Notes: generated from the sequence alone by a model not told the origin. Positions 6,233-64,000 are shown, numbered from the stretch's first letter. The stretch: 64,000 bases of DNA from a virus (IMGVR_UViG_3300028887_000077:64001-128000); one strand, 5' to 3'. Numbers and translations are program-made.

Positions 6233-6261
6233 TTGACAAACACAAATGGACGTGTTATAAT
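6233..6261 (+). promoter_or_regulatory. sigmaA/sigma70 promoter driving RNA cluster
   Basis: TTGACA-17 nt-TATAAT with extended TG and A-rich upstream. Confidence 0.9.
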
Positions 6262-6329
6262 GTCATCGAAAGGTTGAGGCGGCCGATATAAGATGCCAAC
6301 TTAAATTGGCCGCTCCTGTAAAATCTAAT

Positions 6330-6407
6330 GGGCGCTTAGCTCAGATGGTTAGTAGCCCTCGTCTCATAAGCGAATTGTCGCAGGTTCGAGCCCTGCAGCG
6401 CCCACCA
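6330..6407 (+). tRNA. tRNA with CAT anticodon (Ile2 or elongator Met)
   Basis: GGGCGCT/AGCGCCC acceptor stem, CT-CAT-AA loop, GGTTCGAG T loop, encoded CCA. Confidence 0.9.
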
Positions 6408-6425
6408 TTTTGAAGGAGAATAGCT

Positions 6426-6788
6426 ATGATGGAAATCGGCTGGCTTGCTCCTGACGGCACCATGATCGAATGCGCACTAATGGACCATGTTGCGACAGCC
6501 GAGGAACTTGCTGAAAAAATGGGCTGGAAGGAATACGATGCAGACTTTAACAGGACTCCTCCTGACGACTTCTTGATGGAGCACGGCTTCGTGCATATCA
6601 CGAGGGGTATGTTCTTCGATCACAACTATCATATAATGCACAAGAAACATTACACGCAGGCACAGAAAGACTGGCTCAAGCCGCGCGTGGAAGACAACTG
6701 GAACGACCTCGATAGTTTTTGTCAGATGGATTGGGGTTGGGAGAACGACGAAGACTATCAAAAAGCATTTGACGAGTATAGAAAATAA
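6426..6788 (+). CDS. hypothetical protein (paralog of 1570..1908)
   Basis: AAGGAG RBS; GWLAPDG motif. Confidence 0.8.
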   Translation: MMEIGWLAPDGTMIECALMDHVATAEELAEKMGWKEYDADFNRTPPDDFLMEHGFVHITRGMFFDHNYHIMHKKHYTQAQKDWLKPRVEDNWNDLDSFCQMDWGWENDEDYQKAFDEYRK

Positions 6789-6801
6789 AACAAATCAATA
6801 T

Positions 6802-6896
6802 GCGGAACGTAGCTCAGCGGCAGAGCTTCGCTGTAAAAAAGGGGTAAAGCGCGAAACATCCTTGGTCGCCGGTTCGAGTCCGGCCGCTCCGCACTA
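6802..6896 (+). ncRNA. tRNA-like RNA with enlarged anticodon region
   Basis: acceptor GCGGAACG/CGCTCCGC, D arm GCTC/GAGC, T arm GCCGG-TTCGAGT-CCGGC; 19-nt loop between TTCGC/GCGAA; ends ACTA. Confidence 0.7.
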
Positions 6897-7180
6897 GGGC
6901 AAAGTTGTGAGCCCAGTCAGAAAATCAACGGGTGTGCACCAACGAGTTGCATGGTCTACTCGGACCCATGCGAGTACATTTCCATCGTCTAATTGGAGTA
7001 GTTAAAATGCCCGACGACAAGGGAATTAGGCAATTTGCAAGCAGATGCCATGCTGTCCCTGGCATTAGCTTGCCTTCGGCGATGGTAACCAGTCCACCAG
7101 ACCGGAGAAGTGTGACACAGACAAAGGGAACATAGAAGTGTGTCGTCCTACAGAGCGGTGATAACACTAGTCCGCTCACT
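6897..7180 (+). ncRNA. candidate large structured ncRNA, family unknown
   Basis: at least seven complementary helices and two loop-loop pairings; no RBS-led ORF. Confidence 0.5.
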
Positions 7181-7210
7181 ATAATTAAACACGGAGGGTT
7201 CACAAAGGCA

Positions 7211-7348
7211 ATGGAACAAATGAAGGACAAATTCGACTCAATCATTGACTGCCTGAAAAAGGGCATTCAACCGACGATATGCAATCAGCCAACAGTTGAA
7301 AAATCAGAAACTTGCCAATGTCTTGAAGGTTTAAGGTTGATCAAGTAA
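7211..7348 (+). CDS. small hypothetical protein
   Basis: read manually, 45 aa MEQMKDKFDSIIDCLKK.. Confidence 0.4.
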   Translation: MEQMKDKFDSIIDCLKKGIQPTICNQPTVEKSETCQCLEGLRLIK

Positions 7349-7396
7349 CACAATCGAACGAAGACAAGGGTTTTGTAAAGAGACAGGATCTTTTAT

Positions 7397-7475
7397 GGGC
7401 CCGAAAGGGGTCGACGTGCGTTAAAGCCTACACGGAAGCGTACGGACGTGGGTTCAACTCCCACCGGGTCCACCA
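7397..7475 (+). ncRNA. ssrA: minimal tmRNA: tRNA-like domain only
   Basis: GGGCCCG/CGGGTCC acceptor with G3.U70, unpaired D region ending GGTCGAC, stem GTGCGTT/AGCGTAC, GGAC then T arm GTGGG-TTCAACT-CCCAC, ACCA end. Confidence 0.85.
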
Positions 7476-7661
7476 GCAAAGGAGATTAGCGTGTTGTTGT
7501 CCAAACTCCTATCCGGCTTGATCGGAAAACAAAATGACAGGTTCAACAACGGTATGCTTAACGAACCGTTCTAGACGAAAGCAGGAACGGGCGAGATTGC
7601 AATCGGGTTGGTAAACCTCGGTCTTGTACGGCGCCGGAAGTTTCCATCAAACGGAGGAACT

Positions 7662-7976
7662 ATGGACGAAGATATTAGAGTTGGTTTCATCGATCCGACA
7701 AAGATTTGTGTCGAAGATGCACCGCTTGACATGTTTGAGGCAAAGTTCCTCGTTTTGTTGTTGTCTCAGAAATTTGATTTTGTTGACATTTCTCCGAAGG
7801 ACTTTTCTTTTAAGAGGCGTTTTGATATTTCCGGATATAAGAAGGCTGTTGACCGCTTATTTGGATCTCGCGCCGCATGGGAGCGTATGCCGTATCCACC
7901 AAATATGTTATTGCTTTCTATTGAAGCGGATGATGGGCTGATGTTTTTGTTGGTTCGCGGCGACGAACCGCAATAA
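7662..7976 (+). CDS. hypothetical protein
   Basis: GGAGG RBS before ATG at 7662. Confidence 0.75.
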   Translation: MDEDIRVGFIDPTKICVEDAPLDMFEAKFLVLLLSQKFDFVDISPKDFSFKRRFDISGYKKAVDRLFGSRAAWERMPYPPNMLLLSIEADDGLMFLLVRGDEPQ

Positions 7977-8001
7977 AACTTTAAAAAGTTTACAAAAACT
8001 C

Positions 8002-8030
8002 TTGACAAATCATATTGCATATGATATAAT
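8002..8030 (+). promoter_or_regulatory. sigmaA promoter
   Basis: TTGACA-17-TATAAT with TG. Confidence 0.9.
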
Positions 8031-8062
8031 GTATACGAAAACAAAGAAACGGAGCGGAAATT

Positions 8063-8491
8063 ATGCAGTTTTTTGATGAAGAAATGCTTTATTGCCACGA
8101 GACCAATAAGGTGTATAATGCAGAAATCTACAACGACAGATACTGTTGTGCGTGTGGATCCAAGTGGTGCACACCAGTAGAGGTTACGCGTTCTTATCAG
8201 GCAGAGAACATGTGGTACATTAAGAGGGAAGCCGATATTATCATTAAGGCTTTCGATCGCAGATTTCCTGGATATATTAAGGACCATCTATACGATACAT
8301 ATGTGCGTCTTTACGAATCAGATGTATTTATCGACTTCACCGAAGACGCAGATATCGCGGAGATTGAGCGGTTGATCGACGATCTCAAAGGGTGCGGACT
8401 GGAACCATTTTCTATGAAAAAGGTGTACCACAACGGAAAAGCGGTTTTCTGTTTGGACCTTGTTGCTTCGATTTGTGCAGAGGAGATTTAA
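8063..8491 (+). CDS. hypothetical protein
   Basis: first ORF after promoter. Confidence 0.75.
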   Translation: MQFFDEEMLYCHETNKVYNAEIYNDRYCCACGSKWCTPVEVTRSYQAENMWYIKREADIIIKAFDRRFPGYIKDHLYDTYVRLYESDVFIDFTEDADIAEIERLIDDLKGCGLEPFSMKKVYHNGKAVFCLDLVASICAEEI

Positions 8492-8493
8492 GT

Positions 8494-8763
8494 ATGTACG
8501 GAGACGATTTTAAATTTGTTGAGCCGCGCGATGTGAAGGTTTTAGGGCAAACAATGAGATCCGAAAAGAAAAACGAGTATGTTGTTGATCTCATCCTTGC
8601 TCTGGCATGGGCCCAATGGACGACCGATCGCACCAATGATGTCATTCTTTGGATGCGTGCGCTGGATATAGCAGAGGTTTGTGGTGTGAAGCTTCAATGG
8701 GTTGAGATGGCGACGTTCCGGACTTTGAATAAGAAAACGAAGAATAAAAGAGGAGTTTTATGA
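8494..8763 (+). CDS. hypothetical protein
   Basis: GAGGAG RBS. Confidence 0.7.
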   Translation: MYGDDFKFVEPRDVKVLGQTMRSEKKNEYVVDLILALAWAQWTTDRTNDVILWMRALDIAEVCGVKLQWVEMATFRTLNKKTKNKRGVL

Positions 8764-9131
8764 AGAGAAAGAACTGCGTATCAATCGGCGTAAAAGACGC
8801 CTATCAAATGCTTATTTCTGAGCTCAGATATGGATATACTCGCAACAACCATCTGATGCCGTGGGGCGCCTATGAGCACGTTAAGATTTACCTTCCCGTT
8901 ATGGAAACCATCGACCGGGATTGGGCTCTTAAAACCGCGCAGCAGGCGGCCGAAGAGTGTATCAGTGACGAGTTGAGTATCAGGCTTCGCAACGAGGATC
9001 AACACGGAAACAGAAAGATGGCCGTAGAGTTCGTCGGATATCTTGTGGACTGGATTTGCAAACAAGAAAATGGTTATAGATATATGCCGTACAATTACGA
9101 CCATTTCGTGAGCATGATCGGCGAGGACTAA
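8760..9131 (+). CDS. hypothetical protein
   Basis: GAGGAG RBS, ATGA overlap. Confidence 0.75.
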   Translation: MKRKNCVSIGVKDAYQMLISELRYGYTRNNHLMPWGAYEHVKIYLPVMETIDRDWALKTAQQAAEECISDELSIRLRNEDQHGNRKMAVEFVGYLVDWICKQENGYRYMPYNYDHFVSMIGED

Positions 9132-9132
9132 T

Positions 9133-9366
9133 ATGGGCAAGAACCGTTGGCCGAGCTGGATGCTAGATTGGATCGCAGCAGATCAACTCTCTCTTGCCGT
9201 TCTGGGCGCCGCTGTTCGTGCAAGACGAACAGAGCTTGGTTGGTCAAAGGAGGAGTTTGCTGATAAAGCCGGGGTCTCTGTTGATAAGATTGATGAGTGG
9301 GAAAGCGGAGAATACGACTTTCTTCTCTCCGAAATCTTTCATCTTGAAAGAGTGCTCGGCGAATAA
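9133..9366 (+). CDS. XRE-family helix-turn-helix protein
   Basis: VRARRTELGWSKEEFADKAGVS..IDEWESG. Confidence 0.85.
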   Translation: MGKNRWPSWMLDWIAADQLSLAVLGAAVRARRTELGWSKEEFADKAGVSVDKIDEWESGEYDFLLSEIFHLERVLGE

Positions 9367-9482
9367 TATTAGGGTGTAGATAATAGACAGGGGCGACGGT
9401 CGTCCCGGAAGGTAGCAAGGTTGGATTCCCCGACCTACAGGTTCGACTCCTGCTGGTGTGCTCTAAAACCTTACTTTTATAT

Positions 9483-9571
9483 GGAGGCATAGCATAGTTG
9501 GTATAGTGCGCCGGAAGATTGCTCGCGAACGATCTCCGGAGACATTGGTTTGAGTCCAGTTGCTTCTTCCC
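9483..9571 (+). ncRNA. tRNA-like RNA with extended anticodon stem and 8-nt loop
   Basis: acceptor GGAGGCA/TGCTTCT, D arm GCAT/GTGC, arm CCGG-A-AGATTG-CTCGCGAA-CGATCT-CCGG, T arm ATTGG-TTTGAGT-CCAGT. Confidence 0.7.
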
Positions 9572-9713
9572 GTAAGTCCACGGAAAGTCCCATGATCAAG
9601 GTAAGCGCGGTGTAAACGCGTGACTTCCGTGGCTGGCCCCAACTATCGGAAAAATAATTCGACAATCGTCGGATTATTTGCATATATACGCGTATTTAAG
9701 AAAGGAGACAAAA

Positions 9714-9971
9714 ATGAAGGTAAACGAGCTTATTTCGATCCTGCAGAAGTGCGATCCGGACCTCGACGTGCTTATGGAAGATTCTCGTACAAGCAACCCA
9801 AACAATGTGATTCCGGTTTCTATGGTGCTTATCGGTGACGACGAATTGTCTAACGCCGTTATCTTCGTGAGAGATCCGGACGAATACGACGACGAGGAAT
9901 ATATGTCCGGCACAGAAGAGCAGAAAGAATATCAGCTTTGCGAAGCCGATCTTCCCCTGGAAACAATGTGA
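9714..9971 (+). CDS. hypothetical protein
   Basis: AAGGAG RBS; MKVNELISILQKCDPDLDV phage-type N-terminus. Confidence 0.8.
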   Translation: MKVNELISILQKCDPDLDVLMEDSRTSNPNNVIPVSMVLIGDDELSNAVIFVRDPDEYDDEEYMSGTEEQKEYQLCEADLPLETM

Positions 9972-9978
9972 GGTACGT

Positions 9979-10680
9979 ATGAACAACACATTCCCTCCTG
10001 TCTCAAAAGAAGAACAAAAAGGATGGACGAACGAAGATCAGAGCCCTGAGCGCGTCGCGATCATGTCGTCTGCTATGTGGGCCGAGTATTACTGCGGCAA
10101 TCAACAGTATGAAGAGGCCAAGCCGTATGTCGAGAAGCTCAGACTGCTTCTGAATAAGGTGTCTCCGGTCGTTCAAAAGAAATGCGGAAATAGCGTGCGC
10201 GTGAACATGCTGGAACGCATAGAGAGCGAGATTGAGATCGTCGACGCGTTTTTGCCAGAGTATAAAGATATATTCCATTACGTCCCCGCAAGAATGTTCG
10301 ACAAATACAGCGACGCATGGACATCAACGCCGTGTTATGAAAAAGATATGGCTGTTTTATGCAGCGTAAAATCTAATGGATATATGAACAGAGCCACGAC
10401 CAACGTGATGTGTGTTCATTCATATCGTCCAATGCTTTATATACACGCGGCGCCAGAAGACGTTGGGAGTGTGTTTGAGTTTGGCAACAGGGAGTTTGAG
10501 ATTGTTTCTGAAAGCTACGCCTTCTGCACAACGGATGTCGGAAAAGGAGTGTACGCATATCCGGACAATGAAGAACCAAAACTGTTCGATTACGATAATT
10601 CTATCGCCAAAGTGGTGGTAGACATGTGGTTTAAACGAGCCGTCCAGGGTGACGATCTGTCTAATTTTAGGCTGAATTGA
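9979..10680 (+). CDS. hypothetical protein; C-terminus paralogous to 4133..4609
   Basis: VGSVFEFGNREFEIVS..AFCTTDVG..DYDNS..VDMWF matches VGDSIIFNDKEFEVIS..AFCKTDIG..DYEKS..VDWWF. Confidence 0.8.
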   Translation: MNNTFPPVSKEEQKGWTNEDQSPERVAIMSSAMWAEYYCGNQQYEEAKPYVEKLRLLLNKVSPVVQKKCGNSVRVNMLERIESEIEIVDAFLPEYKDIFHYVPARMFDKYSDAWTSTPCYEKDMAVLCSVKSNGYMNRATTNVMCVHSYRPMLYIHAAPEDVGSVFEFGNREFEIVSESYAFCTTDVGKGVYAYPDNEEPKLFDYDNSIAKVVVDMWFKRAVQGDDLSNFRLN

Positions 10681-10952
10681 CTACGAAAAAACCAAATAAA
10701 AGAATCATTTTATTAAATCAGATTTCCAGTAAAATCAAGGGGTTTTCGGAGGCACGTTTTATGTGATTTTTGGCAGCCCGAAGATCCGGCGAGGTTCATA
10801 TAAGCGAAAACGATACTATTAACCAAATCCGAGAATTTTGATTGTTGCGGAGTGCTTGAAAATAAGAGTGTCAAAACATCAAAAATATCGGATTTGGTTA
10901 CTTTCATTTTAATAGGGGGGGGCGTGGCGAAACCGGCATACGCATCAGACTC

Positions 10953-11339
10953 ATGATCTATACAACATATTTTGCTAACCTTAAACGACTTCATGGTATA
11001 ACACCAATCGCAATCTGTGCCAAGCCACCGGCTGGATACAACGGGCTATGTTACAGGCGTTTGGCGCCCTCATATGCGACATTAATGGCATACAAGACAA
11101 TTACCGACCAAGATGCGTACATCAAGAGTTATAACGAATCGGTTCTCTCACAACTCGATCCGGTCCGCGTCGTACGCGAATTGTCTGCTCTGTCCCAGAC
11201 AGAAGACTTTGCTTTGGTGTGTTATGAGAGGCCAGACGCTTTCTGCCATAGACATCTTGTGAGAGAGTGGCTGATTCAAAACGGATTCGAATGTGAAGAA
11301 TATCCAAATCAAACTAATAATGGAGGAAACAATGGGTAA
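10953..11339 (+). CDS. DUF488-like protein
   Basis: MIYTTYF..LAPS..LVCYE..FCHRHLV. Confidence 0.8.
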   Translation: MIYTTYFANLKRLHGITPIAICAKPPAGYNGLCYRRLAPSYATLMAYKTITDQDAYIKSYNESVLSQLDPVRVVRELSALSQTEDFALVCYERPDAFCHRHLVREWLIQNGFECEEYPNQTNNGGNNG

Positions 11340-11898
11340 TAAACTTCCGATTGTGGTAAACCTTTTCGCAGGCCCCGGAGCCGGTAAAAGCACCGGCGCG
11401 GCATACATCTTCGCAGAGCTAAAGATCGCGAATGTGAATGCAGAGCTCGTTACAGAGTTTGCCAAAGACCTTGTGTGGCAGCAAGACATGACGGCACTGA
11501 AGAACCAGATCTATGTTCTTGGCAACCAGAGCCTTAGGCTGTCTAGATGTATCGACAAGGTCGATGTGATTGTAACAGACAGTCCGTTGTTAATGAATTG
11601 TACATATTGTTCACAGGACGAACCCTATTATGAGAGCTTTCAGAATGTTGTTTATAGTGATTGGTCGAAGTATAATAACTACAATTTCTTTATTAAGAGG
11701 GTAAAGCCATATAAAAAGGTCGGGCGCCTTCAAGACGAAGAGGGTGCGAAGATCAAAGATGCAGAGATAGCAGGTTGCCTGAATAAGTTTAACGAAAAAT
11801 TTGAATATGTTCCCGGAGATAAAAACGGGTATGACTACATCGTAAAAAAGATTCTTTGCGCTGTTAACAACATTAAGAACGAGGAGGAAAGAAAATGA
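11332..11898 (+). CDS. P-loop NTPase, NadR/AAA_28-like nucleotide kinase
   Basis: NLFAGPGAGKST Walker A; ELVTEFAKDLVW; IVTDSPL. Confidence 0.85.
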   Translation: MGNKLPIVVNLFAGPGAGKSTGAAYIFAELKIANVNAELVTEFAKDLVWQQDMTALKNQIYVLGNQSLRLSRCIDKVDVIVTDSPLLMNCTYCSQDEPYYESFQNVVYSDWSKYNNYNFFIKRVKPYKKVGRLQDEEGAKIKDAEIAGCLNKFNEKFEYVPGDKNGYDYIVKKILCAVNNIKNEEERK

Positions 11899-12464
11899 AG
11901 AAGTGCATGTACTGCCAAAAGTTCCCGGATAAAAAGTGCCACTGCCTCGCATACACGAAGGCGAAAAGAAAAGACGGAATGGGCTGGCTTCACTATCCGG
12001 AGTGCTGTAAAGAAAAGTGCCCGATCGAGAACCCGGATCTTCTTGAGGGCGCCGATTTTGTGTCCGATAATAAAAATCCGATCCGCAAAAGGATGTATCG
12101 GAAGCAACTTAAAAAGTGTCGAAAGGAGCTGAAAAGAATAGCCAAAACATATGGCGCATTCGATTTTGGCTGGTTGCTCGACATGATGGAGGTTATTTTT
12201 AAAAACTGGGCGCAGTATTATACGCTTGGTTATAACGTTGCCGCCGTCGAACGTTGCGACCTGGCCGATGATTATATTAACAGCGACGACGAAAAGCAGA
12301 GGGATCTGGCAAAGAAGTTTAAAGACATTCCTCGAAGAAGAGAAGTCGCCAAAGTCCTTCTGGAAAAGGTGCGCCTTCTTAAAAACTGGGAAACCGACAC
12401 AAGAGAAAACTTCCAGTCGTTTGGAGAATATCTCGGTAGCTGGCTCCCTTACATGTGGGATTAA
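11895..12464 (+). CDS. hypothetical protein
   Basis: GGAGG RBS, ATGA overlap. Confidence 0.75.
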   Translation: MKKCMYCQKFPDKKCHCLAYTKAKRKDGMGWLHYPECCKEKCPIENPDLLEGADFVSDNKNPIRKRMYRKQLKKCRKELKRIAKTYGAFDFGWLLDMMEVIFKNWAQYYTLGYNVAAVERCDLADDYINSDDEKQRDLAKKFKDIPRRREVAKVLLEKVRLLKNWETDTRENFQSFGEYLGSWLPYMWD

Positions 12465-12479
12465 AATTTTCGCAGGGTC

Positions 12480-12508
12480 TTGACAAACATATGCCCTTGT
12501 GGTATACT
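12480..12508 (+). promoter_or_regulatory. sigmaA promoter
   Basis: TTGACA-17-TATACT with TG. Confidence 0.85.
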
Positions 12509-12521
12509 ATAGGAGGTAAAG

Positions 12522-12836
12522 ATGATTAATCAAAAAGTTAGAGACTATCTCAACGAAACAGTAAATGAATGTATTATCTTCGAAGACCCGTCGTTCGACA
12601 ACAGTATTATAGGTGTTTCTGACGATGGAAAACACGTCATATACGACTATGAGAAAATGGTCAAGGAATTTGTTAACGATAACAATATTTCAGACGATGA
12701 CGGTGAGGGAGTTATGGAAGCTGTAGATTTTATTGACTACAATACGATCCGGGCTCTTAATTATATGAGCGACGATAATAAGCCTATCGTGGTTATGGAT
12801 ACGCCGCAATTTGAATCTCTTGTCAAGGAGGGATAA
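12522..12836 (+). CDS. conserved phage hypothetical protein
   Basis: AGGAGG RBS; FDNSIIG..IYDYEKM..EAVDFIDYNTIR. Confidence 0.85.
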   Translation: MINQKVRDYLNETVNECIIFEDPSFDNSIIGVSDDGKHVIYDYEKMVKEFVNDNNISDDDGEGVMEAVDFIDYNTIRALNYMSDDNKPIVVMDTPQFESLVKEG

Positions 12837-12859
12837 TGCCGCGGAAACGTGGCGTTTAC

Positions 12860-12948
<89 letters not shown>

Positions 12949-13120
12949 ATCAATATGTCGGTTATAGTATTGGTATTAATATGGCTCGTTCTTGCTGTTG
13001 TATATCTTATTGTGAGATATGTCAACAGAAGAAAACATATCGGAAGAGCATTAAGAAGAAGACGGTATAAGAGATGAATACTGTTTTAGAGATTATTTTT
13101 GAGGATGGTGAAAAGAATAA

Positions 13121-13363
13121 ATGAGTTATCCGAAGCCTTATAATATGGATCATTGTTACTATAAGATACGAAGACGCGGAACAGAGCAAAGGGTTTGCTT
13201 TTCCGATCTTACCTATCAAGAAAGGGAACAGGTTCTTGCCAACCACGATAAGGAGTCACTGATCCGGCTCGCTTGTCATCTTGGCGAATGTTTACATAAC
13301 GCCGGAGCATCAACGGCGATCCTTAGAGCGCTTGTGTCTAATAAAACCGATGAGGAGGAATAA
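13121..13363 (+). CDS. hypothetical protein
   Basis: ORF tiles operon. Confidence 0.7.
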   Translation: MSYPKPYNMDHCYYKIRRRGTEQRVCFSDLTYQEREQVLANHDKESLIRLACHLGECLHNAGASTAILRALVSNKTDEEE

Positions 13364-14140
13364 ATGTTTCATCAATACAAAGAACATGAAAACGGAGAGG
13401 TAAAAGACGGTAAGGGCCGTTGGATATACGCGACAAAATCTTGGGCTGCTCATTATGCAGACGAAGAGCTTTGGACAATTAAAAATAACGGTAGGGGCAT
13501 TCCGTCTGGAGGGGTTGTTGGGAGACGGGTAGACTTTTGGGACGAATATGGCGAAGATTTTAATGAATATCTTGCTTGTTCTGATCGGTGTCGTACCTGC
13601 TTTTTTACGCTTCCGGAAACATATCGCAAAAAAACCGTATTAACAATTCATAATATGAACGATCTCAATGCAGCATTTGAGAAATATCAGATTTCTTATG
13701 CAAAACTGATCGTTGAAGCGGTTAATATTATGGTCTTTGACTGGGAAAAACTTTCTCAGGACTATATCGCGCTTGAGTATATTCCGGAGAAAGAAGAAGA
13801 TCTTGAGGTTCAAAATCGAACAAAATGGTTCCCGGGTATGATTGTATCCTTTGATTGGAAATCTCTTTATCCGGTAGACCTTCCCAAGGATAAGATTTGT
13901 CGGTTTACATGCGATATTGAAATTGGCGATGTTGTTTGGTTCAGGAGTGCCGGAGAAACGAAACAGATTGAGGTTACGCGAAACAATATCTGTATCGTAA
14001 AAATTATGTGGGGAAACCAATTCTATATGTCTCCACAGATGCCTGGGTCTGAAAAAGCGCCGTATCGAGACGAGTTTGGAAGAATCGATTGGTTGTTCTT
14101 TACGCCGCACAATCTCGAGCAGCTTGAGAACGCAAACTGA
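13364..14140 (+). CDS. hypothetical protein
   Basis: GGAGG RBS, 258 aa. Confidence 0.8.
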   Translation: MFHQYKEHENGEVKDGKGRWIYATKSWAAHYADEELWTIKNNGRGIPSGGVVGRRVDFWDEYGEDFNEYLACSDRCRTCFFTLPETYRKKTVLTIHNMNDLNAAFEKYQISYAKLIVEAVNIMVFDWEKLSQDYIALEYIPEKEEDLEVQNRTKWFPGMIVSFDWKSLYPVDLPKDKICRFTCDIEIGDVVWFRSAGETKQIEVTRNNICIVKIMWGNQFYMSPQMPGSEKAPYRDEFGRIDWLFFTPHNLEQLENAN

Positions 14141-14626
14141 CTTTTCAATAGAATTTTGACCCTAAAAACACAACTTTTCAAATTTTGCATAGCATAAATA
14201 CGAAAATAGTGCCAAGGTGGCACCAAAACACATATTTTTATGGTGCCAAGCGGTGATTCCGTCGCTCCCCGGCAGCGGCTAGTCATATATAGATTACATT
14301 TTTCCATGAGAAAACTGAGGTCAAAATCACATTTTTCCACGAGATAAGACTGCGGGGCGCATGCTGGGGATGTGCCTTTTATAGAACCGTAAAAAATCCA
14401 TATGGAATGTTTATAACAACCAACATATCATAAATGTTTGCGGATGGTTTAATTTATATAAAATATAAATTAAAAACTTCAGTTGGATTTGGTATTGGTT
14501 TGGGGTAGTTTTCATATGGTATATGTCGTTTTCGGGGTAAAATTGATGTCTTTTATTCTGTTTTTTATATAAAAACAGCCCATTTTGGTGGTTCTGAAAG
14601 GTTTTTGATTTTTTTCTTAAAACCAC

Positions 14627-14655
14627 TTGACAAACTAAACATCATGTGTTATAAT
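14627..14655 (+). promoter_or_regulatory. sigmaA promoter for tRNA-Leu/fMet/Pro cluster
   Basis: TTGACA-17-TATAAT with TG. Confidence 0.9.
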
Positions 14656-14711
14656 GGTCGTGCAAATGAAAGAGACGCCGGTGTGGTGGAACTGGAAGAC
14701 ACAGGGGACTT

Positions 14712-15368
14712 CAAAGGGAGGTAATTGATATCGGTGGCTGTTTATGACGGATGGGATGTTTATGGTCCGTATGTTCGGGCAGACAAAAGACAACATGTTG
14801 TACTCGTATTACACGATGAAAACGGGTCGATTGTAAAAAGGCGGACTATTAGCTATCCAAAATATCTTGTTGAAAAATATTTAGACAGATATTTAAATTC
14901 GGAAGAAACGGTTGACCACATCGATGGTGATTTTTCAAACAACTCGCTTGAAAATCTTCGTGTTGTACTAAGGAGCCTACACGCAAAAAGCCATGCTTCT
15001 AAGAGACAAACGGTGCAGGTACAATGTTTGATTTGTGGAAAAACATTTGTTACCAACAATATCAACAGGGTATGCTGCGGCGATAAGCATTGCGTTGGAA
15101 AGCTCTCTCATGTAAACGGGTATAACCTTGGATATGAGTTTGTTAAAAAATCAAACATTCTTTTACCACCAAACAGGAGCCTGATTGAAGAAATTCAATC
15201 AGTGGAGGGCGCTAATTCGGGGAAGTCGTTGGTCGATAATCCCGAGCAATAAGCAACTTGCTTAGTGTGTAGAGACTTTACACGCCCTACCTAAATCTTA
15301 AAGACAAGGTAAAGAGAAAGTCCGGACCACAAACCAAGTAATTGGGTAGCGAAAACTATAGTGGTAAG
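14712..15368 (+). mobile_element. group I intron with HNH endonuclease ORF
   Basis: exon ends in U, intron ends in G; core elements AATTCGGGGAA, AATCCCGAGC, GTAGAGACTTTAC, AAGAGAAAGTCC. Confidence 0.9.
14725..15252 (+). CDS. intron-encoded HNH homing endonuclease
   Basis: ETVDHIDGDFSNNSLENL HNH motif, C-terminal CLIC/CCGDKHC Zn motif; GGAGG RBS with TTG start. Confidence 0.85.
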   Translation: MISVAVYDGWDVYGPYVRADKRQHVVLVLHDENGSIVKRRTISYPKYLVEKYLDRYLNSEETVDHIDGDFSNNSLENLRVVLRSLHAKSHASKRQTVQVQCLICGKTFVTNNINRVCCGDKHCVGKLSHVNGYNLGYEFVKKSNILLPPNRSLIEEIQSVEGANSGKSLVDNPEQ

Positions 15369-15448
15369 AAAATCCCTAGGCTCAAAGGCTGTACGGGTTC
15401 GAGCCCCGTCACCGGTACCATATAGCAGCGCGGAAAGGAGATACTGAG

Positions 15449-15667
15449 ATGAAGTTTTCTAAGGAGAAAATGATCGAGCGAATTACCCGCGAAGGACGCA
15501 AAGAAATGATCGATGAGAATGTCATGAAAATTATGGACAATCTTGACGGTCAGGCAGCCTCAGATCTGGCTGGCCGATGGGTGCGTCATGTGATAGGTAA
15601 ACCTGTCGTGTGGGTTATCGGAAAGGACGGAAGGGGAGAGTACGTTCTCGAGGAGGATTGCGTATAA
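15449..15667 (+). CDS. hypothetical protein
   Basis: AAGGAG RBS. Confidence 0.75.
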   Translation: MKFSKEKMIERITREGRKEMIDENVMKIMDNLDGQAASDLAGRWVRHVIGKPVVWVIGKDGRGEYVLEEDCV

Positions 15668-15688
15668 TAAGTCTAAGGACGATTTTAT

Positions 15689-15764
15689 AGCGGGGTGGAG
15701 CAGTCGGTAGCTTGTCGGGTTCATAACCCGAAGGTCGTAGGTTCGAGTCCTGCCCCCGCCACCA
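15689..15764 (+). tRNA. initiator tRNA-fMet(CAT)
   Basis: 1:72 mismatch (A.C), three G-C pairs closing anticodon stem (TCGGG/CCCGA), CCA. Confidence 0.95.
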
Positions 15765-15948
15765 ATACGGAATGCCATAGCGGGCCCCGAATGCGAGGGT
15801 TTGTTGCGTGTGTGGATGGCAAATGCGACTAAGCGTGGTTGGGGTCGCCGCAGAGAGAACTGCGTGTTCTGCAGAACTAAACAAACTCAAGTTTGGGTGT
15901 ATCGACAATCGGACGCGTACTTTTGTTGGTACACCCGGATGAAATTAT

Positions 15949-16024
15949 CGAGGTGTAGCTCAGCTGGCAGAGCACCGGTCTTGGGGTCCGGGTTGCGGGG
16001 GTTCGAGTCCCTTCACTTCGACCA
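15949..16024 (+). tRNA. tRNA-Pro(TGG)
   Basis: CGAGGTG/CACTTCG acceptor, CT-TGG-GG loop, CCA. Confidence 0.9.
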
Positions 16025-16026
16025 GG

Positions 16027-16349
16027 GGCAACTATGCCTGTCGTCAAAAAATAGTAGGTTTCTCCCGTCTTTCCGTAATAAGATCGTTTTCTACATAGCG
16101 GCAGTACCGATGCCCGACGCTATGGTCTTAGTAGCAAGATGGTTGACACCCGCTAAATTGGGATCTCGGTTTGGAAGCGCCGGTAAAAGCGTAATAGTGA
16201 CTGCAGAGCTATTACGTGTCTTCCACTCATATGGGTAAGCAACGGCAACTCCGTTGTAAACCCACCAGGCCATCGTGGATAGTCGGTCCCGGAGATAGTT
16301 GGAAGGTCACGCTCTACAAATACCTTTGTCTATCGGAATAACTGTTGCC
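16027..16349 (+). ncRNA. candidate large structured ncRNA, family unknown
   Basis: closing helix GGCAAC/GTTGCC plus about ten nested helices; no RBS-led ORF. Confidence 0.5.
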
Positions 16350-16415
16350 ACGCAGGAAAACCGATGCAGGGTCCTTTTCGAAGAACCTAAAAAATAAATC
16401 CAAGGAGGCGTTGTC

Positions 16416-17615
16416 ATGAAGAAAACCACTACTCGTTATTACCTCGACAACGCTGCCGGAGAGCCGTTACGCAAAGAGGCCATTGAGGCGATGATCCTCT
16501 GCATGGAAAAGTACGGAAACGGCGAATATTCCAACCCTTCTAACATCATGGCTATCTCGGGCAATAGCGCGAGCAGGGCCATGACGGAAGCCAGAGCCTC
16601 GATTGCTTCGTGCATCGGGGCTCTTCCAGAAGAAATTACCTTTACCTCCGGTGGCACAGAATCCAACAACATCGTCATTCACTCCGCGGTTAAACAAGGC
16701 CTCGTTAAAACACACAATCCGCACGTTGTCGTTTCTGCTATCGAACACAAGTCGGTTCTTGAGGCTGTGAAAAATATTACCGCCGAGTACGAGGGGTCTT
16801 ATACGGTCGTTCCGTGCCCAGACGGAGTGGTTGACGTTGATATTCTTGCAAACGCGATCTCCGAAAACACCTGCCTTGTTGCGGTTATGATGGTAAACAA
16901 CGAGGTTGGAACTGTTCAGCCGATTAAAGAGGTCGCAAAGATTTGTTCTGCGAACAAGGTTCCGTTCCTTGTGGACGCTGTACAGGCCGTGGGGCACATG
17001 CCAATCGACGTCAAAGACCTTGGGATTACTTATCTTTCGGCATCCGGGCACAAGTTTGGTGCGCCGGCCGGTACGGGGTTCCTGTGGCACAAGAAAGGCG
17101 CCGCACTGATGCGCTTTTCATATGGCGGTGGTCAGGAGGGCGGATATCGCCCCGGCACCGAGAACCTCGTAGGTATCGTCGGTATGGAAGCCGCGCTTTG
17201 CGCATCGCTCAAAGACTATGCAGACAATTATGAGGATTTGCTTTACACAAACTCCTACATACGTGATAAGGTCAGGGCGAAAATTCCAGACTGTATCATC
17301 AACGGAGAAAACTCTCCGTGTATTCCGACGACGATCAGCTTGTCCTTCAAAGACATCGACGGACCGGGTCTTTCGCTCCGTTTAAACCTTGCCGGATTCA
17401 CCGTTTCCAACGGATCGGCGTGTAACGCGTCCTCTAAGACCGCTTCTCACGTTCTCAAGGCGATGAAGATACCGAAGGATTATATCGGAGGAACAATCAG
17501 GATCTCATTTGCCTCGCACAACATGAAAACGGCAGACCTCGCAAAGGATCTGGTAACAGAACTTACCGAATCCGTGGCTAAGCTACGGTCGTTCAAGACA
17601 AAAGGAGACAAGTAA
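16416..17615 (+). CDS. iscS: IscS/NifS-type cysteine desulfurase (PLP-dependent)
   Basis: YLDNAA, FTSGGTESNN, IEHKSV, VNNEVG, DAVQAVG, SGHKFG (PLP lysine), RPGTEN, NGSAC (catalytic Cys). Confidence 0.95.
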   Translation: MKKTTTRYYLDNAAGEPLRKEAIEAMILCMEKYGNGEYSNPSNIMAISGNSASRAMTEARASIASCIGALPEEITFTSGGTESNNIVIHSAVKQGLVKTHNPHVVVSAIEHKSVLEAVKNITAEYEGSYTVVPCPDGVVDVDILANAISENTCLVAVMMVNNEVGTVQPIKEVAKICSANKVPFLVDAVQAVGHMPIDVKDLGITYLSASGHKFGAPAGTGFLWHKKGAALMRFSYGGGQEGGYRPGTENLVGIVGMEAALCASLKDYADNYEDLLYTNSYIRDKVRAKIPDCIINGENSPCIPTTISLSFKDIDGPGLSLRLNLAGFTVSNGSACNASSKTASHVLKAMKIPKDYIGGTIRISFASHNMKTADLAKDLVTELTESVAKLRSFKTKGDK

Positions 17616-17854
17616 TGAAAAGCCAAAACTATTTTCTCCCCACCAGTCCCGACGACGAAGTTTACGTCATTCATTCCGGACTTGGCGGTATTCACATTCT
17701 TAAGGATCGCGTTTTGTGGGTCGTGATCGACAAACACGGCATCTTTTTCAACACCACATATATCTGCAACGGCACATGGTTTGTCGACGTATTTCCCACC
17801 GAGGACGACGCCCGTCAATACGCGGCCGAACACAACGTAGAACTTGACGATTAA
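17615..17854 (+). CDS. hypothetical protein (LPCxxGDxVY-type family)
   Basis: FLPTSPDDEVYVI..WFVDVFPTEDDA. Confidence 0.75.
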   Translation: MKSQNYFLPTSPDDEVYVIHSGLGGIHILKDRVLWVVIDKHGIFFNTTYICNGTWFVDVFPTEDDARQYAAEHNVELDD

Positions 17855-17871
17855 AAGGAGGAGCTTATCTG

Positions 17872-18051
17872 ATGAAAGATCTCGAAAAGACCATTAAACA
17901 TTTCGTGTCTCAGCAAAAGAGATACATGACGCAGCACGACGGGAAGCGCTGCGAGCGGATCGACGACGCACTCGAAGCTCTGAGATATTTCAATGCGGTT
18001 GTTTACGACAAGCCGAGCTTCGTTGAAGAACGGTTGAAGAAGGACGCCTGA
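17872..18051 (+). CDS. small hypothetical protein
   Basis: AAGGAGG RBS; read manually, 59 aa. Confidence 0.65.
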   Translation: MKDLEKTIKHFVSQQKRYMTQHDGKRCERIDDALEALRYFNAVVYDKPSFVEERLKKDA

Positions 18052-18069
18052 GTAATACTCGGCTAACGA

Positions 18070-18819
18070 TTGAGCGTGAAAAACGAAATTGCAATTCTGC
18101 TGGCGGCCGGCTTGGGCACCAGGATGAGTCCTTTGACTCAAAATATACCTAAACCGCTGGTTAAGGTATTCGGCAGGCCTATGATCGAGACAATGATCGA
18201 AGGACTAAGGTGTCGCGGCGTCAAACGGATCTACGTGGTCGTCGGCTACAAGGGAGAATGTTTTGAGTACCTAACAAAAAAGTACGACAACGTATCGACC
18301 ATCAAAAACGACGAGTATCAAACGGTCAACAACATTTCGTCGGTGCACGCGGCGATCCCGGTGATGGGCGACGCAGACTGCTTCATTTGCGAAGCCGACT
18401 TCTACGTATTTGATCCGTCTATTTTTGACGCCAACTTAACGCATTCCTGCTATTATGGTTTTATGGTCAATGGATATAGCGAAGAATGGGTTTTGGAACA
18501 AAACGAAAGCGGACGGGTAGTCCGGGTCGGAAAGTGCGGCGTCGATTGTTATAACATGTGTGGTATTTCGTGGTTCAAGCGAGACGACACAAAGAAACTG
18601 GCGGACGCGATCATGCGCTCTTACGAGCATACCGGCACCTACGAAAACCTGTTCTGGGACGAGGTCGTTAACAAGGAACTTGACAATATCGACATGACGG
18701 TTTACCCGGTGAAGAGGGAGCAGATCGTCGAGATCGATTCGGTCAAGGAACTGGAAAAAATAGATCCAAATTATATGGAGGAAAATTATTATGCAGAGTC
18801 TGTATCACATTTCATTTGA
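18070..18819 (+). CDS. LicC-like phosphocholine cytidylyltransferase (NTP transferase)
   Basis: AILLAAGLGTRMSPLT..PKPLVKV, VVGYK, NNISS, ICEAD, GISW, FWDE, EIDS. Confidence 0.85.
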   Translation: MSVKNEIAILLAAGLGTRMSPLTQNIPKPLVKVFGRPMIETMIEGLRCRGVKRIYVVVGYKGECFEYLTKKYDNVSTIKNDEYQTVNNISSVHAAIPVMGDADCFICEADFYVFDPSIFDANLTHSCYYGFMVNGYSEEWVLEQNESGRVVRVGKCGVDCYNMCGISWFKRDDTKKLADAIMRSYEHTGTYENLFWDEVVNKELDNIDMTVYPVKREQIVEIDSVKELEKIDPNYMEENYYAESVSHFI

Positions 18820-51691: not shown

Positions 51692-52483
51692 TTATTTTAT
51701 ATTAGTTGTGCCGGCTATATTTAACGACTTTTCGGGATTTTCCTTATAGTACTTCTGAATATAATACTTTTCTCGCTCCAAGATATTTTCGTCCTTAGGT
51801 ACGATTTCCAAAACTTCAAACTGATAATCAGTAATCGAGCTGATCGGGAATCTTTCGGTCTTCAGATGCTGCCCCCATCTAAAAATAGGCGCATATACTG
51901 TTTGACCGATGTAAAATTCTCCTGTCGACTTTTTCGAAATCTTATAGATATACCCGGCGCACTCGTTAGAAAACATGTCTCTGGTAACGAAAAACTCGGT
52001 GTCCTGATCAGGGCTTAGCTTTTTTGTTTCTCTCTGTCTGTATTTTTCTTTGCACGCATAGCAACAAAACTTTTTAGTTCTATATTCTTGGATGTTAAAA
52101 AAGTCGTACTTTACTTCGTAGTTGGCGAACTCTATATATTTTCGCAGATACGTCGTAACTTGGGACCCGCAGTTATCACAGACAAATGAAATTTTTTGAA
52201 AGTACCGCTCTGTGTCATAGCAGTGTTCACCAATTATAACACAGTACAAATCGCCAGCTTTGAGATTTTTGCTGAATCGAAAAGAAATATTTTCGCCGTA
52301 TTCGTCACGGATAATTGACTTGAACTGCTCTCGGTCATCACAAACAAGGCAGTCCATAGTCAGTTCCTTGTTGCACATTTTACTTATGCTGTTAAACCCG
52401 AAAACTTCTACCCCCGATTGTAGTGCTTTCTCCTGCTCTTCCGCAGAAGACACCTCGTAGATTCGGTACAAAACTTCAATCAT
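51692..52483 (-). CDS. GIY-YIG nuclease domain protein with Zn ribbon
   Basis: GYIYKI..FYIGQT..RWGQH..FEVLE..EREKYYI..LN; upstream CDNC/CCYAC. Confidence 0.85.
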   Translation of the reverse strand: MIEVLYRIYEVSSAEEQEKALQSGVEVFGFNSISKMCNKELTMDCLVCDDREQFKSIIRDEYGENISFRFSKNLKAGDLYCVIIGEHCYDTERYFQKISFVCDNCGSQVTTYLRKYIEFANYEVKYDFFNIQEYRTKKFCCYACKEKYRQRETKKLSPDQDTEFFVTRDMFSNECAGYIYKISKKSTGEFYIGQTVYAPIFRWGQHLKTERFPISSITDYQFEVLEIVPKDENILEREKYYIQKYYKENPEKSLNIAGTTNIK

Positions 52484-63847: not shown

Positions 63848-63923
63848 GCTTCTTTAGCTCAGTTGGCAGAGCAACGGTCTGTTAAACCGTGGGTCGTAGG
63901 TCCGAGCCCTACAGGAAGCGCCA
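63848..63923 (+). tRNA. tRNA-Asn(GTT)
   Basis: ACGGT-CT-GTT-AA-ACCGT, G73, CCA; T loop reads TCCGA. Confidence 0.9.
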
Positions 63924-64000
63924 GATAGAACCAGACAAGCCTCCTAACAATGCTCAAATCGTCTGGTCTTTCACCAATTACCCCAAAGGCCAAGGGGTCG

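Follow-up and report, generated by a model that had tools for sequence, protein, structure and literature searches.

What kind of locus is formed when ordinary tRNA genes, a reduced transfer-messenger RNA (tmRNA), tRNA bodies with unusable anticodon arms and helix-rich spacers lie together behind strong promoters in a phage genome? We asked this of positions 6233-16349 in a 64,000-nt window, which represents bases 64,001-128,000 of the 150,027-bp phage record IMGVR_UViG_3300028887_000077, a record with direct terminal repeats that is rated complete. A preliminary description of this DNA had taken the span for an array of RNAs working as one coordinated toolkit early in infection. Its observations were partly confirmed and its interpretation partly supported, whereas the coordinated system was not supported. 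Our own reading, to which we give a probability of roughly 0.7, is an early-region mosaic, in which independent cassettes alternate small open reading frames (ORFs) with tRNA-type genes, among them a mini-tmRNA and an intron-split tRNA-Leu gene. The span holds three noteworthy RNA genes, which are known kinds in new settings, plus odd tRNA-like bodies. Sequence features, family membership, covariation and the presence or absence of pieces in relatives are observed here; transcription, processing, charging, SmpB binding, splicing and homing are inferred. The genome appears to belong to a large lytic-type phage of a gut bacterium; near-identical DNA occurs in runs labelled bovine gut or gut metagenomes, and we infer a Gram-positive-type host because of the extended -10 promoters and strong Shine-Dalgarno sites.

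The protein-coding content already speaks for a mosaic. By our own sum over ORFs with ribosome-binding sites, about 6.8 of the 10.1 kb is protein-coding, so that the span is not an RNA array. A comparison of the ORF list with the sequence gave about 18 small plus-strand ORFs, many of them with clear ribosome-binding sites (for example those starting at ATGs 6426, 7663, 12522, 15449 and 16416). The RNA genes are scattered among these ORFs, often 14-24 nt from a stop or start codon. Only a few of the small ORFs have a family, namely HTH, DUF488-N3a, P-loop kinase-like and HNH endonuclease. The standard genetic code fits the genome, with stop-free frames of at least 100 codons covering 94 % of it; stop-codon recoding was ruled out, and readthrough of TGA or TAG barely extends the longest frames.

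The four near-consensus sigmaA promoters reported in the preliminary description are all present where it placed them (Table 1). However, they are not peculiar to this span. The strict pattern (TTGACA, 17 nt, TGnTATAAT) occurs 14 times genome-wide, whereas 100 dinucleotide shuffles contain it 0.03 times on average, and 12 of the 14 sites lie on the plus strand at genome positions 32-85 kb. By our own comparison of positions, a tRNA-type gene follows within about 1.5 kb downstream of five of these 12, and the remaining seven lead into protein genes only. Since the promoter type occurs genome-wide and most of its units have no tRNA-type gene, we regard it as a general early signal rather than an RNA-specific one. 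These very strong host-type promoters would drive mixed transcripts of small early ORFs and tRNA-type genes, from which RNase P and 3' processing enzymes would cut the RNAs.

Relatives show the same independence. We compared contigs from four DNA metagenome runs at a likeness of at least 80 %, with the limit that some tRNA joints may belong to other organisms. In relatives of about 90 % identity, single pieces are gained or lost as separate indels (6795-7183, 13076-13358, 15421-15685 and 15765-15946), and other tRNAs occupy the same places, as in the relative X3, which differs after 9379 and before 6408. Five more distant kin phages, linked by a 558-aa protein at 67-68 % identity, share no DNA with the span except promoter-like stretches and have no homologue of its 233-aa early protein. 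Five other contigs that contain comparable RNA elements are not related to this phage as judged by the 558-aa protein. Megablast and blastn searches against GenBank phages returned tRNA matches plus one intron match only, and protein-anchored scans found one viral locus of 41 % identity, without tRNAs, and 75 metagenome loci, all at or below 41 %.

In a coordinated set of early decoys, the mini-tmRNA would be directed at SmpB, the tRNA bodies at anticodon nucleases or tRNA-sensing regulators, and the spacers would be structured RNAs released by tRNA processing. Every piece is indeed encoded on the same strand, downstream of strong early promoters of which there are four, and both the mini-tmRNA and the pair of tRNA bodies unable to decode hold up. 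Yet a span that is about two-thirds coding, a promoter found in 14 genome-wide units, and pieces that come and go singly at about 90 % identity and are missing from more distant relatives make such a design very improbable, and the following sections bring further points on both sides. The negative result matters in itself, as a dense-looking RNA array turns out to be mostly small protein genes and independent cassettes.

The mini-tmRNA and its viral family

The preliminary description had noted a tmRNA consisting of the tRNA-like domain (TLD) only, and this gene holds up. Its 79 nt match the tmRNA model RF00023 end to end, well above the gathering score (Table 1), with 12 nt in place of the model's 306. 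The Rfam alignment and the predicted fold give an acceptor stem with G3.U70, A73, an encoded CCA, a GGxxUCGAC D-loop analogue and a T arm; the D arm is replaced by this analogue, and the tRNA-like domain is otherwise complete. In the fold, P2 is a 7-bp helix capped by a small 2-bp hairpin. The gene has no resume codon, tag reading frame or stop, and ARAGORN reported neither a tmRNA nor a tag peptide for it. The pseudoknots PK1-PK4 are absent from the 79 nt, and there is no SmpB gene in the phage genome.

To place this gene among viral sequences, we scanned IMG/VR with the pattern TCGAC, 15-45 nt and a GGAC-T-arm motif, which matched 93 viral stretches. Among these, 59 had a 5' acceptor strand no more than 30 nt upstream pairing at six or more of seven positions, and they collapsed to 51 unique sequences; the other 34 look like the 3' ends of ordinary tmRNA genes. 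Five of the 51 were dropped, four for lacking G3.U70 and one for a start other than GGG, which left 46. The counts that follow refer to these 46 plus the window sequence (n = 47) in an end-anchored parse. All seven acceptor positions are paired in 47/47, with three to five pair types at positions 4-7. A73 and G3.U70 are likewise present in all 47, the latter count being partly circular because of the selection on a GGG start and acceptor pairing; before any dropping, 47 of the 51 unique sequences had G.U at 3:70. The first five P2 pairs are formed in 37-46 of the 47 sequences with five to six pair types each, compared with 34-60 % paired when the partner is shifted by one. In addition, the interval from TCGAC to GGAC measures 25-31 nt in 39 of the 47, a narrow range more suggestive of a fixed architecture than of random deletions.

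A covariance model built from the 46 sequences and the window (R1) gave scores of 50.9-79.8 bits within the family and of no more than 46.4 for the 3' ends of other tmRNAs, with the window at 71.6 bits, its sequence being part of the training set. In the model-fitted alignment, the covariation score was 0.459, versus 0.111 for shuffles (0 of 500 reached it) and 0.06-0.13 for slid partners. P2 is 95.4 % paired there, and both sides have changed in five of its six pairs. The 46 further distinct viral sequences from one pattern-limited scan point to a recurrent viral interference with ribosome rescue.

As a gene product, the mini-tmRNA would be a complete small RNA with everything for charging by alanyl-tRNA synthetase (G3.U70, A73, CCA), and it would keep the usual SmpB-binding elbow while offering no tag reading frame. 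Most likely, it would compete with the host tmRNA for host SmpB and stalled ribosomes, so that trans-translation would be dampened or redirected during infection. A role in SmpB titration is plausible, and the same idea is already in print for mycobacteriophage DS6A. PMC4131195 and PMC11915505 describe the tmRNA of this phage as 'TLD only', state that a similar molecule strongly inhibits tmRNA, perhaps via SmpB titration, and report that the TLD-only form inhibits tmRNA when expressed in E. coli. In our literature search, DS6A was the only printed precedent found, although tmRNA database tables may list further viral TLD-only forms, and a viral family with the P2-hairpin module was not found described in print.

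The surroundings of the family bear on two other explanations. A tRNA lies within 500 nt of the mini-tmRNA in 13 of the 46 viral loci, as a joint decoy set would have it, but at 28 of the 46 there is none in the fetched DNA. The same 28 loci also tell against the view that the tRNA-like elements, mini-tmRNA included, act mainly as cut sites for RNase P and RNase Z that separate and stabilise small early mRNAs, with the anticodon region left free to drift. This view draws on the arrangement of the span: each tRNA-type gene adjoins an ORF, the first odd tRNA-like gene starts 14 nt after the stop at 6788, the tRNA at 6330-6407 ends 19 nt before ATG 6426, tRNA-Ser starts 24 nt after the stop at 12836, no convincing plus-strand terminator was seen between a promoter and its RNAs, and the intact arms are those that RNase P and RNase Z need. 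It leaves unexplained, however, why G3.U70, A73 and a tmRNA-specific D-loop analogue recur in 47/47 sequences, and none of the eight listed runs with near-identical DNA is recorded as RNA. We therefore consider cutting to be unlikely as the chief function of these elements.

The split tRNA-Leu(UAA) gene and its predicted group I intron

The second noteworthy gene is a tRNA-Leu(UAA) whose anticodon loop is interrupted between U34 and A35 by a predicted group I intron with an HNH ORF (Table 1). The preliminary description had missed the intron and listed a loose T-loop element; hairpins of this kind do exist near 9436-9450 and at 15392-15408, but the latter belongs to the 3' exon of this tRNA. 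ARAGORN, with introns allowed, called a tRNA-Leu over 14677-15420 with an archaeal-rule splice placement and a poor stem. When we instead joined the exons computationally with 14712-15368 as the intron, a canonical 87-nt tRNA-Leu(UAA) with a long variable arm and CCA resulted. The ribozyme core matched RF00028 at 39.1 bits (E 2.5e-8 in a narrow search), below the gathering score of 50. One supposed decoy is thus a predicted functional tRNA, which speaks further against a coordinated decoy set.

Comparison with other viral genes supports the assignment. The junction GACTT|...G|AAAATC is found in 19/19 tRNA-Leu genes examined. In a core alignment of 16 sequences, seven of 19 predicted pairs show compensatory changes, and near-invariant core columns are common to the window and 15 other tRNA-Leu introns. 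A 735-kb uncultured phage record has 79 % identity to the 3' core of the intron, and its own tRNA-Leu(UAA) gene is interrupted at precisely this site by an intron of 205 nt. A scan for the shared intron-core motif returned 84 viral stretches, some of them near-identical sequences; 62 lie inside intron-bearing tRNA calls of ARAGORN (37 Arg(UCU), 16 Leu(UAA) and nine others), and 22 were not called as tRNA. The 37 tRNA-Arg(UCU) calls (loci L204-L283) have introns of about 197-220 nt, many near-identical across contigs of different metagenomes. Group I matches also occur in all five kin phages (G001-G005), one to four per genome, and in three of these genomes a match exceeds the gathering score.

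The HNH ORF matched PF13392 at 28.2 bits (cut-off 24.8, 1.5e-6) and phrog_14913 at 2e-20. Three other viral tRNA-Leu introns have ORFs at the corresponding place that share 40 % identity with it. The relative contig X5 joins 14715 to 15391 via 17 other letters and so represents an intron-less gene, and contig X7 carries the HNH segment 14721-14996 with three differences in 276 nt, versus 4-11 % in its other pieces. Together these two contigs fit a mobile intron, with the limit that both may stem from other phages in the sample. Self-splicing would restore a normal tRNA-Leu(UAA) from the interrupted gene, and the HNH endonuclease would spread the intron to intron-less alleles of co-infecting relatives. 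A 2014 review states that all phage introns to date were in protein-coding genes (PMC3984707), and our literature search found no later report of a phage tRNA intron. A phage tRNA-Leu(UAA) intron at the classic site, together with a homing endonuclease, bears on the spread of the tRNA-Leu intron.

Some side observations belong here. X5 reads CAAA where the spliced window reads AAAA, and its loop CTTCAAA would give a UCA anticodon (reading UGA) on a Leu-type body; this contig has a depth of 4 and may be another phage, and the window genome is without sign of recoding. The 28-nt stretch 10803-10830 has 79 % identity to the intron-3' exon junction at 15348-15375. A further homing-endonuclease-like ORF lies at 51692-52483 on the minus strand (phrog_314, 6.7e-7).

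Odd tRNA-like genes, spacers and neighbouring genes

The normal tRNAs of the preliminary description were borne out, with four confirmed by ARAGORN and Rfam (Table 1); the one at 15689-15764 looks initiator-like from its mismatched first acceptor pair and GGG/CCC anticodon stem. Its two tRNA bodies unable to decode normally are likewise real. Both score above the RF00005 gathering score of 29, with normal acceptor, D and T arms. A normal anticodon loop has 7 nt with U33; this is absent in both genes, which have 19 nt each in the Rfam alignment, so that presenting an anticodon in normal geometry is impossible. In gene 1, a 5-bp anticodon stem closes the 19-nt loop and the variable region has 12 nt. 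In gene 2, the fold gives an anticodon stem of about 10 bp with one bulge and an 8-nt end loop, where Rfam reads the 19-nt loop, and the extra bases amount to five added stem pairs after the bulge. ARAGORN does not call gene 2, and its forced models of the odd genes are poor. With forced short introns over all fetched loci, it gave only intron-bearing models, including apparent misreadings of long-arm tRNAs.

Are these genes simply decaying? In that case tRNA turnover and mobile elements would have left functionless debris behind, comprising both odd tRNA-like genes, the remnant with a T-loop near 9440 and the majority of the spacers, and the RNAs of importance to the phage would be limited to the ordinary tRNAs, the split tRNA-Leu and possibly the mini-tmRNA. 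The remnant at 9375-9465 fits this well, as it has a T arm but no acceptor pairing detectable by eye, no Rfam match and a z-score of -0.35. Relatives place other tRNAs at such spots: the X3 contig continues past 9379 into other sequence resembling a tRNA 5' half, and it differs before 6408. One relative is without 6795-7183, more distant kin phages have tRNA-like genes with 6-nt or U33-less anticodon loops, and most spacers have unremarkable z-scores. On the other hand, the acceptor, D and T arms of the two odd genes are intact, and both genes pass the gathering score despite the penalty for the loop; this loop measures exactly 19 nt in both, and the regular 5-bp stem extension in gene 2 is contrary to what random insertion predicts. 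Moreover, contigs of X3 cover the stretches of both genes at about 89-91 % identity, with gene 2 kept and 229 nt inserted directly after it. The parts that RNase P, RNase Z and the CCA-adding enzyme recognise are kept in the two genes, which we think may be transcript-processing punctuation or mimics for tRNA-binding host factors. The main alternative, decay, is possible and better placed than the other rivals, though still less probable than the mosaic with its functional parts.

Similar oddities were seen elsewhere. The kin phage G002 has two tRNA-like genes (C1:78591-78658 and 79326-79393) with a 6-nt loop and a 7-nt loop without U33, respectively (31 and 24 bits). Further viral contigs encode tRNA-like genes whose anticodon region is enlarged by 26-38 bases (L264 6074-6191 and 9640-9761; L260 244-359; L221 5065-5185), and both L264 genes contain the same inserted module of about 40 nt.

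Table 1 Features of the early region, in window coordinates.
Feature	Position	Strand	Basis or remark
SigmaA-type early promoter	6233..6261	+	TTGACA, 17 nt, TGtTATAAT; 12/12 hexamer matches plus TG
tRNA, CAU anticodon (Met or Ile2 type), CCA encoded	6330..6407	+	ARAGORN and Rfam, 50.3 bits
120-aa ORF	6426..6788	+	GAAGGAG ribosome-binding site; no family
tRNA-like gene 1	6802..6894	+	RF00005, 37 bits; acceptor, D and T arms normal
316-nt spacer	6895..7210	+	z -1.8, within coding-control range
45-aa ORF	7211..7348	+	No family
TLD-only mini-tmRNA, 79 nt	7397..7475	+	RF00023, 62.7 bits vs gathering score 47
Spacer	7476..7662	+	z +0.4 (7476-7660); possible 27-aa ORF 7491-7574 behind AAGGAG
92-aa ORF	7663..7941	+	ORF list, family searches
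SigmaA-type promoter	8002..8030	+	12/12 hexamer matches, TG extension
Four small ORFs	8063..9366	+	Last is an HTH_3 protein (9133-9366)
Degenerate tRNA-like remnant	9375..9465	+	T-arm-like hairpin CAGG/TTCGACT/CCTG
tRNA-like gene 2	9483..9568	+	RF00005, 44.7 bits; acceptor, D and T arms normal
Two stable hairpins	9569..9677	+	z -3.1 to -3.3
Protein genes	9678..12464	+	Include DUF488-N3a (10953-11339) and P-loop kinase-like protein (11293-11898)
SigmaA-type promoter	12480..12508	+	TATACT as -10; 11/12 hexamer matches, TG extension
tRNA-Ser(UGA)	12860..12948	+	ARAGORN and Rfam, 58.4 bits
SigmaA-type promoter	14627..14655	+	12/12 hexamer matches, TG extension
tRNA-Leu(UAA) 5' exon, ends in U34	14677..14711	+	Sequence, ARAGORN, computed join
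657-nt predicted group I intron, last base G	14712..15368	+	Ribozyme core at 15153-15348
HNH homing-endonuclease ORF	14725..15252	+	Just after 5' splice site, extends into ribozyme core
tRNA-Leu(UAA) 3' exon (A35 onward, long variable arm, T arm, CCA)	15369..15420	+	
72-aa ORF	15449..15667	+	Missing from three relatives' contigs
tRNA, CAU anticodon	15689..15764	+	ARAGORN and Rfam, 62.4 bits
184-nt structured spacer	15765..15948	+	z -2.85 to -3.1; 0/200 shuffles as stable
tRNA-Pro(UGG)	15949..16024	+	ARAGORN and Rfam
391-nt leader or spacer before desulfurase gene	16025..16415	+	z -1.0 (16025-16400)
Class-V pyridoxal phosphate enzyme, NifS/IscS/DndA cysteine desulfurase group	16416..17615	+	PF00266 at 1.6e-61

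The helix-rich spacers of the preliminary description fared unevenly. We folded seven non-coding stretches and compared them with six coding controls (z +0.6 to -2.6, plus strand). Only 9569-9677 and 15765-15948 folded better than the controls, and the other five did not, which again argues against an array of structured RNAs (9367-9482 at z -0.4 and 14141-14626 at z -1.8, the rest in Table 1). No Rfam family was found for any spacer at E up to 10, nor a GenBank phage match by blastn, and five ORFs from both strands, lying within the spacers or overlapping them, had no PHROG match at E up to 0.1. The suggested kinship with large RNAs such as GOLLD and ROOL also failed, as these and other large Rfam non-coding RNAs gave no match at the gathering score or, in narrower searches, at E up to 5-10.

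The stretch 15765-15948 is a fair candidate, and the best one here, for a discrete RNA released by tRNA processing. It lies exactly between two tRNAs, as a set of tRNA-processed RNAs would require, and it is more stable than its shuffles, with the opposite strand at z -0.9. Two relatives also have it, and a third has 9 nt in its place. Most spacers would be leaders, carriers of small ORFs or insertion debris. A possible 42-aa ORF (7007-7135, behind GGAG) lies inside the spacer 6895-7210. The spacers after the first odd tRNA (6895-6902) and after tRNA-Pro (16025-16031) have similar starting bases, and the 10-mer ATGCCCGACG is common to 7004-7016 and 16109-16121, where it starts a possible short ORF (MPD...) in both. 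We rejected the idea that 6895-7210 and 16025-16415 are two copies of one element, as they share only this 10-mer and similar first 8 bases.

Directly downstream, the preliminary description had placed an IscS gene that could supply sulfur for tRNA thiolation. A gene of the NifS/IscS/DndA type is indeed there, but the assignment to IscS did not stand. Its scores against the equivalog cut-offs are 327/531 bits for NifS, 267/480 for DndA and 243-255/548-643 for the IscS models, below every cut-off, which leaves membership of the wider desulfurase group only. The scores for the DNA-phosphorothioation enzyme DndA and for IscS are about equal. Within 10953-11898 and 16416-18819, the early region encodes DUF488-N3a, the P-loop kinase-like protein (a 'thymidylate kinase' in its phrog), the desulfurase and a MobA-like nucleotidyl transferase. 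Judged by these families, the desulfurase and its neighbours may form a nucleic-acid modification set, and the neighbourhood would fit nucleic-acid modification as much as tRNA thiolation.

A few other features of this DNA were recorded. The 272-nt gap between ORFs at 10681-10952 contains a long inverted repeat (about 10820-10902), and one relative has about 410 extra bases at 10953. The AT-rich 486-nt intergenic stretch 14141-14626 (GC 0.35), upstream of the fourth promoter, carries a 22-nt direct repeat with copies 33 nt apart (14293 and 14326). Near the end of the window, tRNA-Asn (63848-63923) is followed 8 nt on by an abiF RNA motif match (RF03085, 49.9 bits, gathering score 37; region 63848-63967).

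Several points weigh against the mosaic of functional cassettes and have to be set beside the evidence above. For the mini-tmRNA, the acceptor helix is only 70.9 % paired in the model-fitted alignment, owing to rows in which the model sets the 5' strand one base off; as stated, the count for G3.U70 is in part circular; and none of the five kin phages has a tmRNA match, so that the gene is not conserved across this lineage of phages. For the intron, the RF00028 score stays below threshold, and the only P1 found by eye is a 4-bp pairing (GGAG beside P2). Neither odd tRNA-like gene is more stable than its shuffles (z -0.04 and -1.16), and gene 1 is missing from the contig X2 of a close relative together with 6895-7183, an absence that fits dispensability or decay. 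The possible foreign origin of some tRNA joints in the contigs and the lack of RNA among the eight listed runs count on the same side.

A bolder joint reading can be drawn from the same material, though we would give it little credence. In it, phages would widely encode a chargeable, SmpB-binding mini-tmRNA with a short P2-hairpin module, which enters stalled ribosomes without a reading frame and disables or redirects host rescue, and any defence depending on it, early in infection. Here it would stand beside two anticodon-less tRNA mimics and a structured 184-nt RNA with tRNAs on either side, all freed when the tRNAs of the early transcripts are processed. An independent part of this reading is that phage tRNA genes (Leu-UAA, Arg-UCU) would commonly harbour group I introns as an overlooked class of mobile element.

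Comparison with known systems

Phage tRNA clusters offset host tRNA-cleaving defences, and PMC13096335 gives one example. The present locus likewise has several tRNA genes early in a large phage. Unlike in those anti-nuclease clusters, nothing ties the tRNAs or non-decoding bodies of the window to a particular nuclease.

The mini-tmRNA shares with the standard bacterial tmRNA (RF00023) the G3.U70, A73, CCA, GGxxUCGAC analogue and T arm, and also the pairs at the start of P2, among them the model's GAC/GGA contacts. The standard molecule has in addition an mRNA-like domain and pseudoknots, whereas the window RNA is without resume codon, tag frame and pseudoknots. Reduced tmRNAs without a coding sequence, likewise lacking the tag frame, are described in PMC11915505 for jakobid mitochondria and some plastids, and they are also the subject of PMC3590771. 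They are organelle genes served by imported SmpB, in contrast to a viral gene whose host presumably has a full tmRNA. The closest likeness is to DS6A, in that both are phage-encoded RNAs reduced almost entirely to the tRNA-like domain of tmRNA. They differ in sequence and in the type of host, DS6A being known here from its published descriptions rather than from its sequence. In contrast to that lone case, we found a family of at least 46 viral-contig sequences with a regular inner module, a P2 helix with a small-hairpin cap.

The intron of tRNA-Leu(UAA) has its counterpart in cyanobacteria and plastids, where a group I intron lies in the same gene at the same U34/A35 site and ends in the same terminal G; the P7/P3/P8/P9 core sequences are conserved. 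The cyanobacterial and plastid intron belongs to subgroup IC3 and is not known to carry an ORF. The window copy differs in residing in a phage and in carrying an HNH ORF directly after the 5' splice site. In this latter respect, it resembles the HNH-bearing self-splicing group I introns of large Bacillus and Staphylococcus phages, which are listed in PMC3706429 and sit in protein genes such as those of DNA polymerase and ribonucleotide reductase, whereas the intron described here sits in the anticodon loop of a tRNA.

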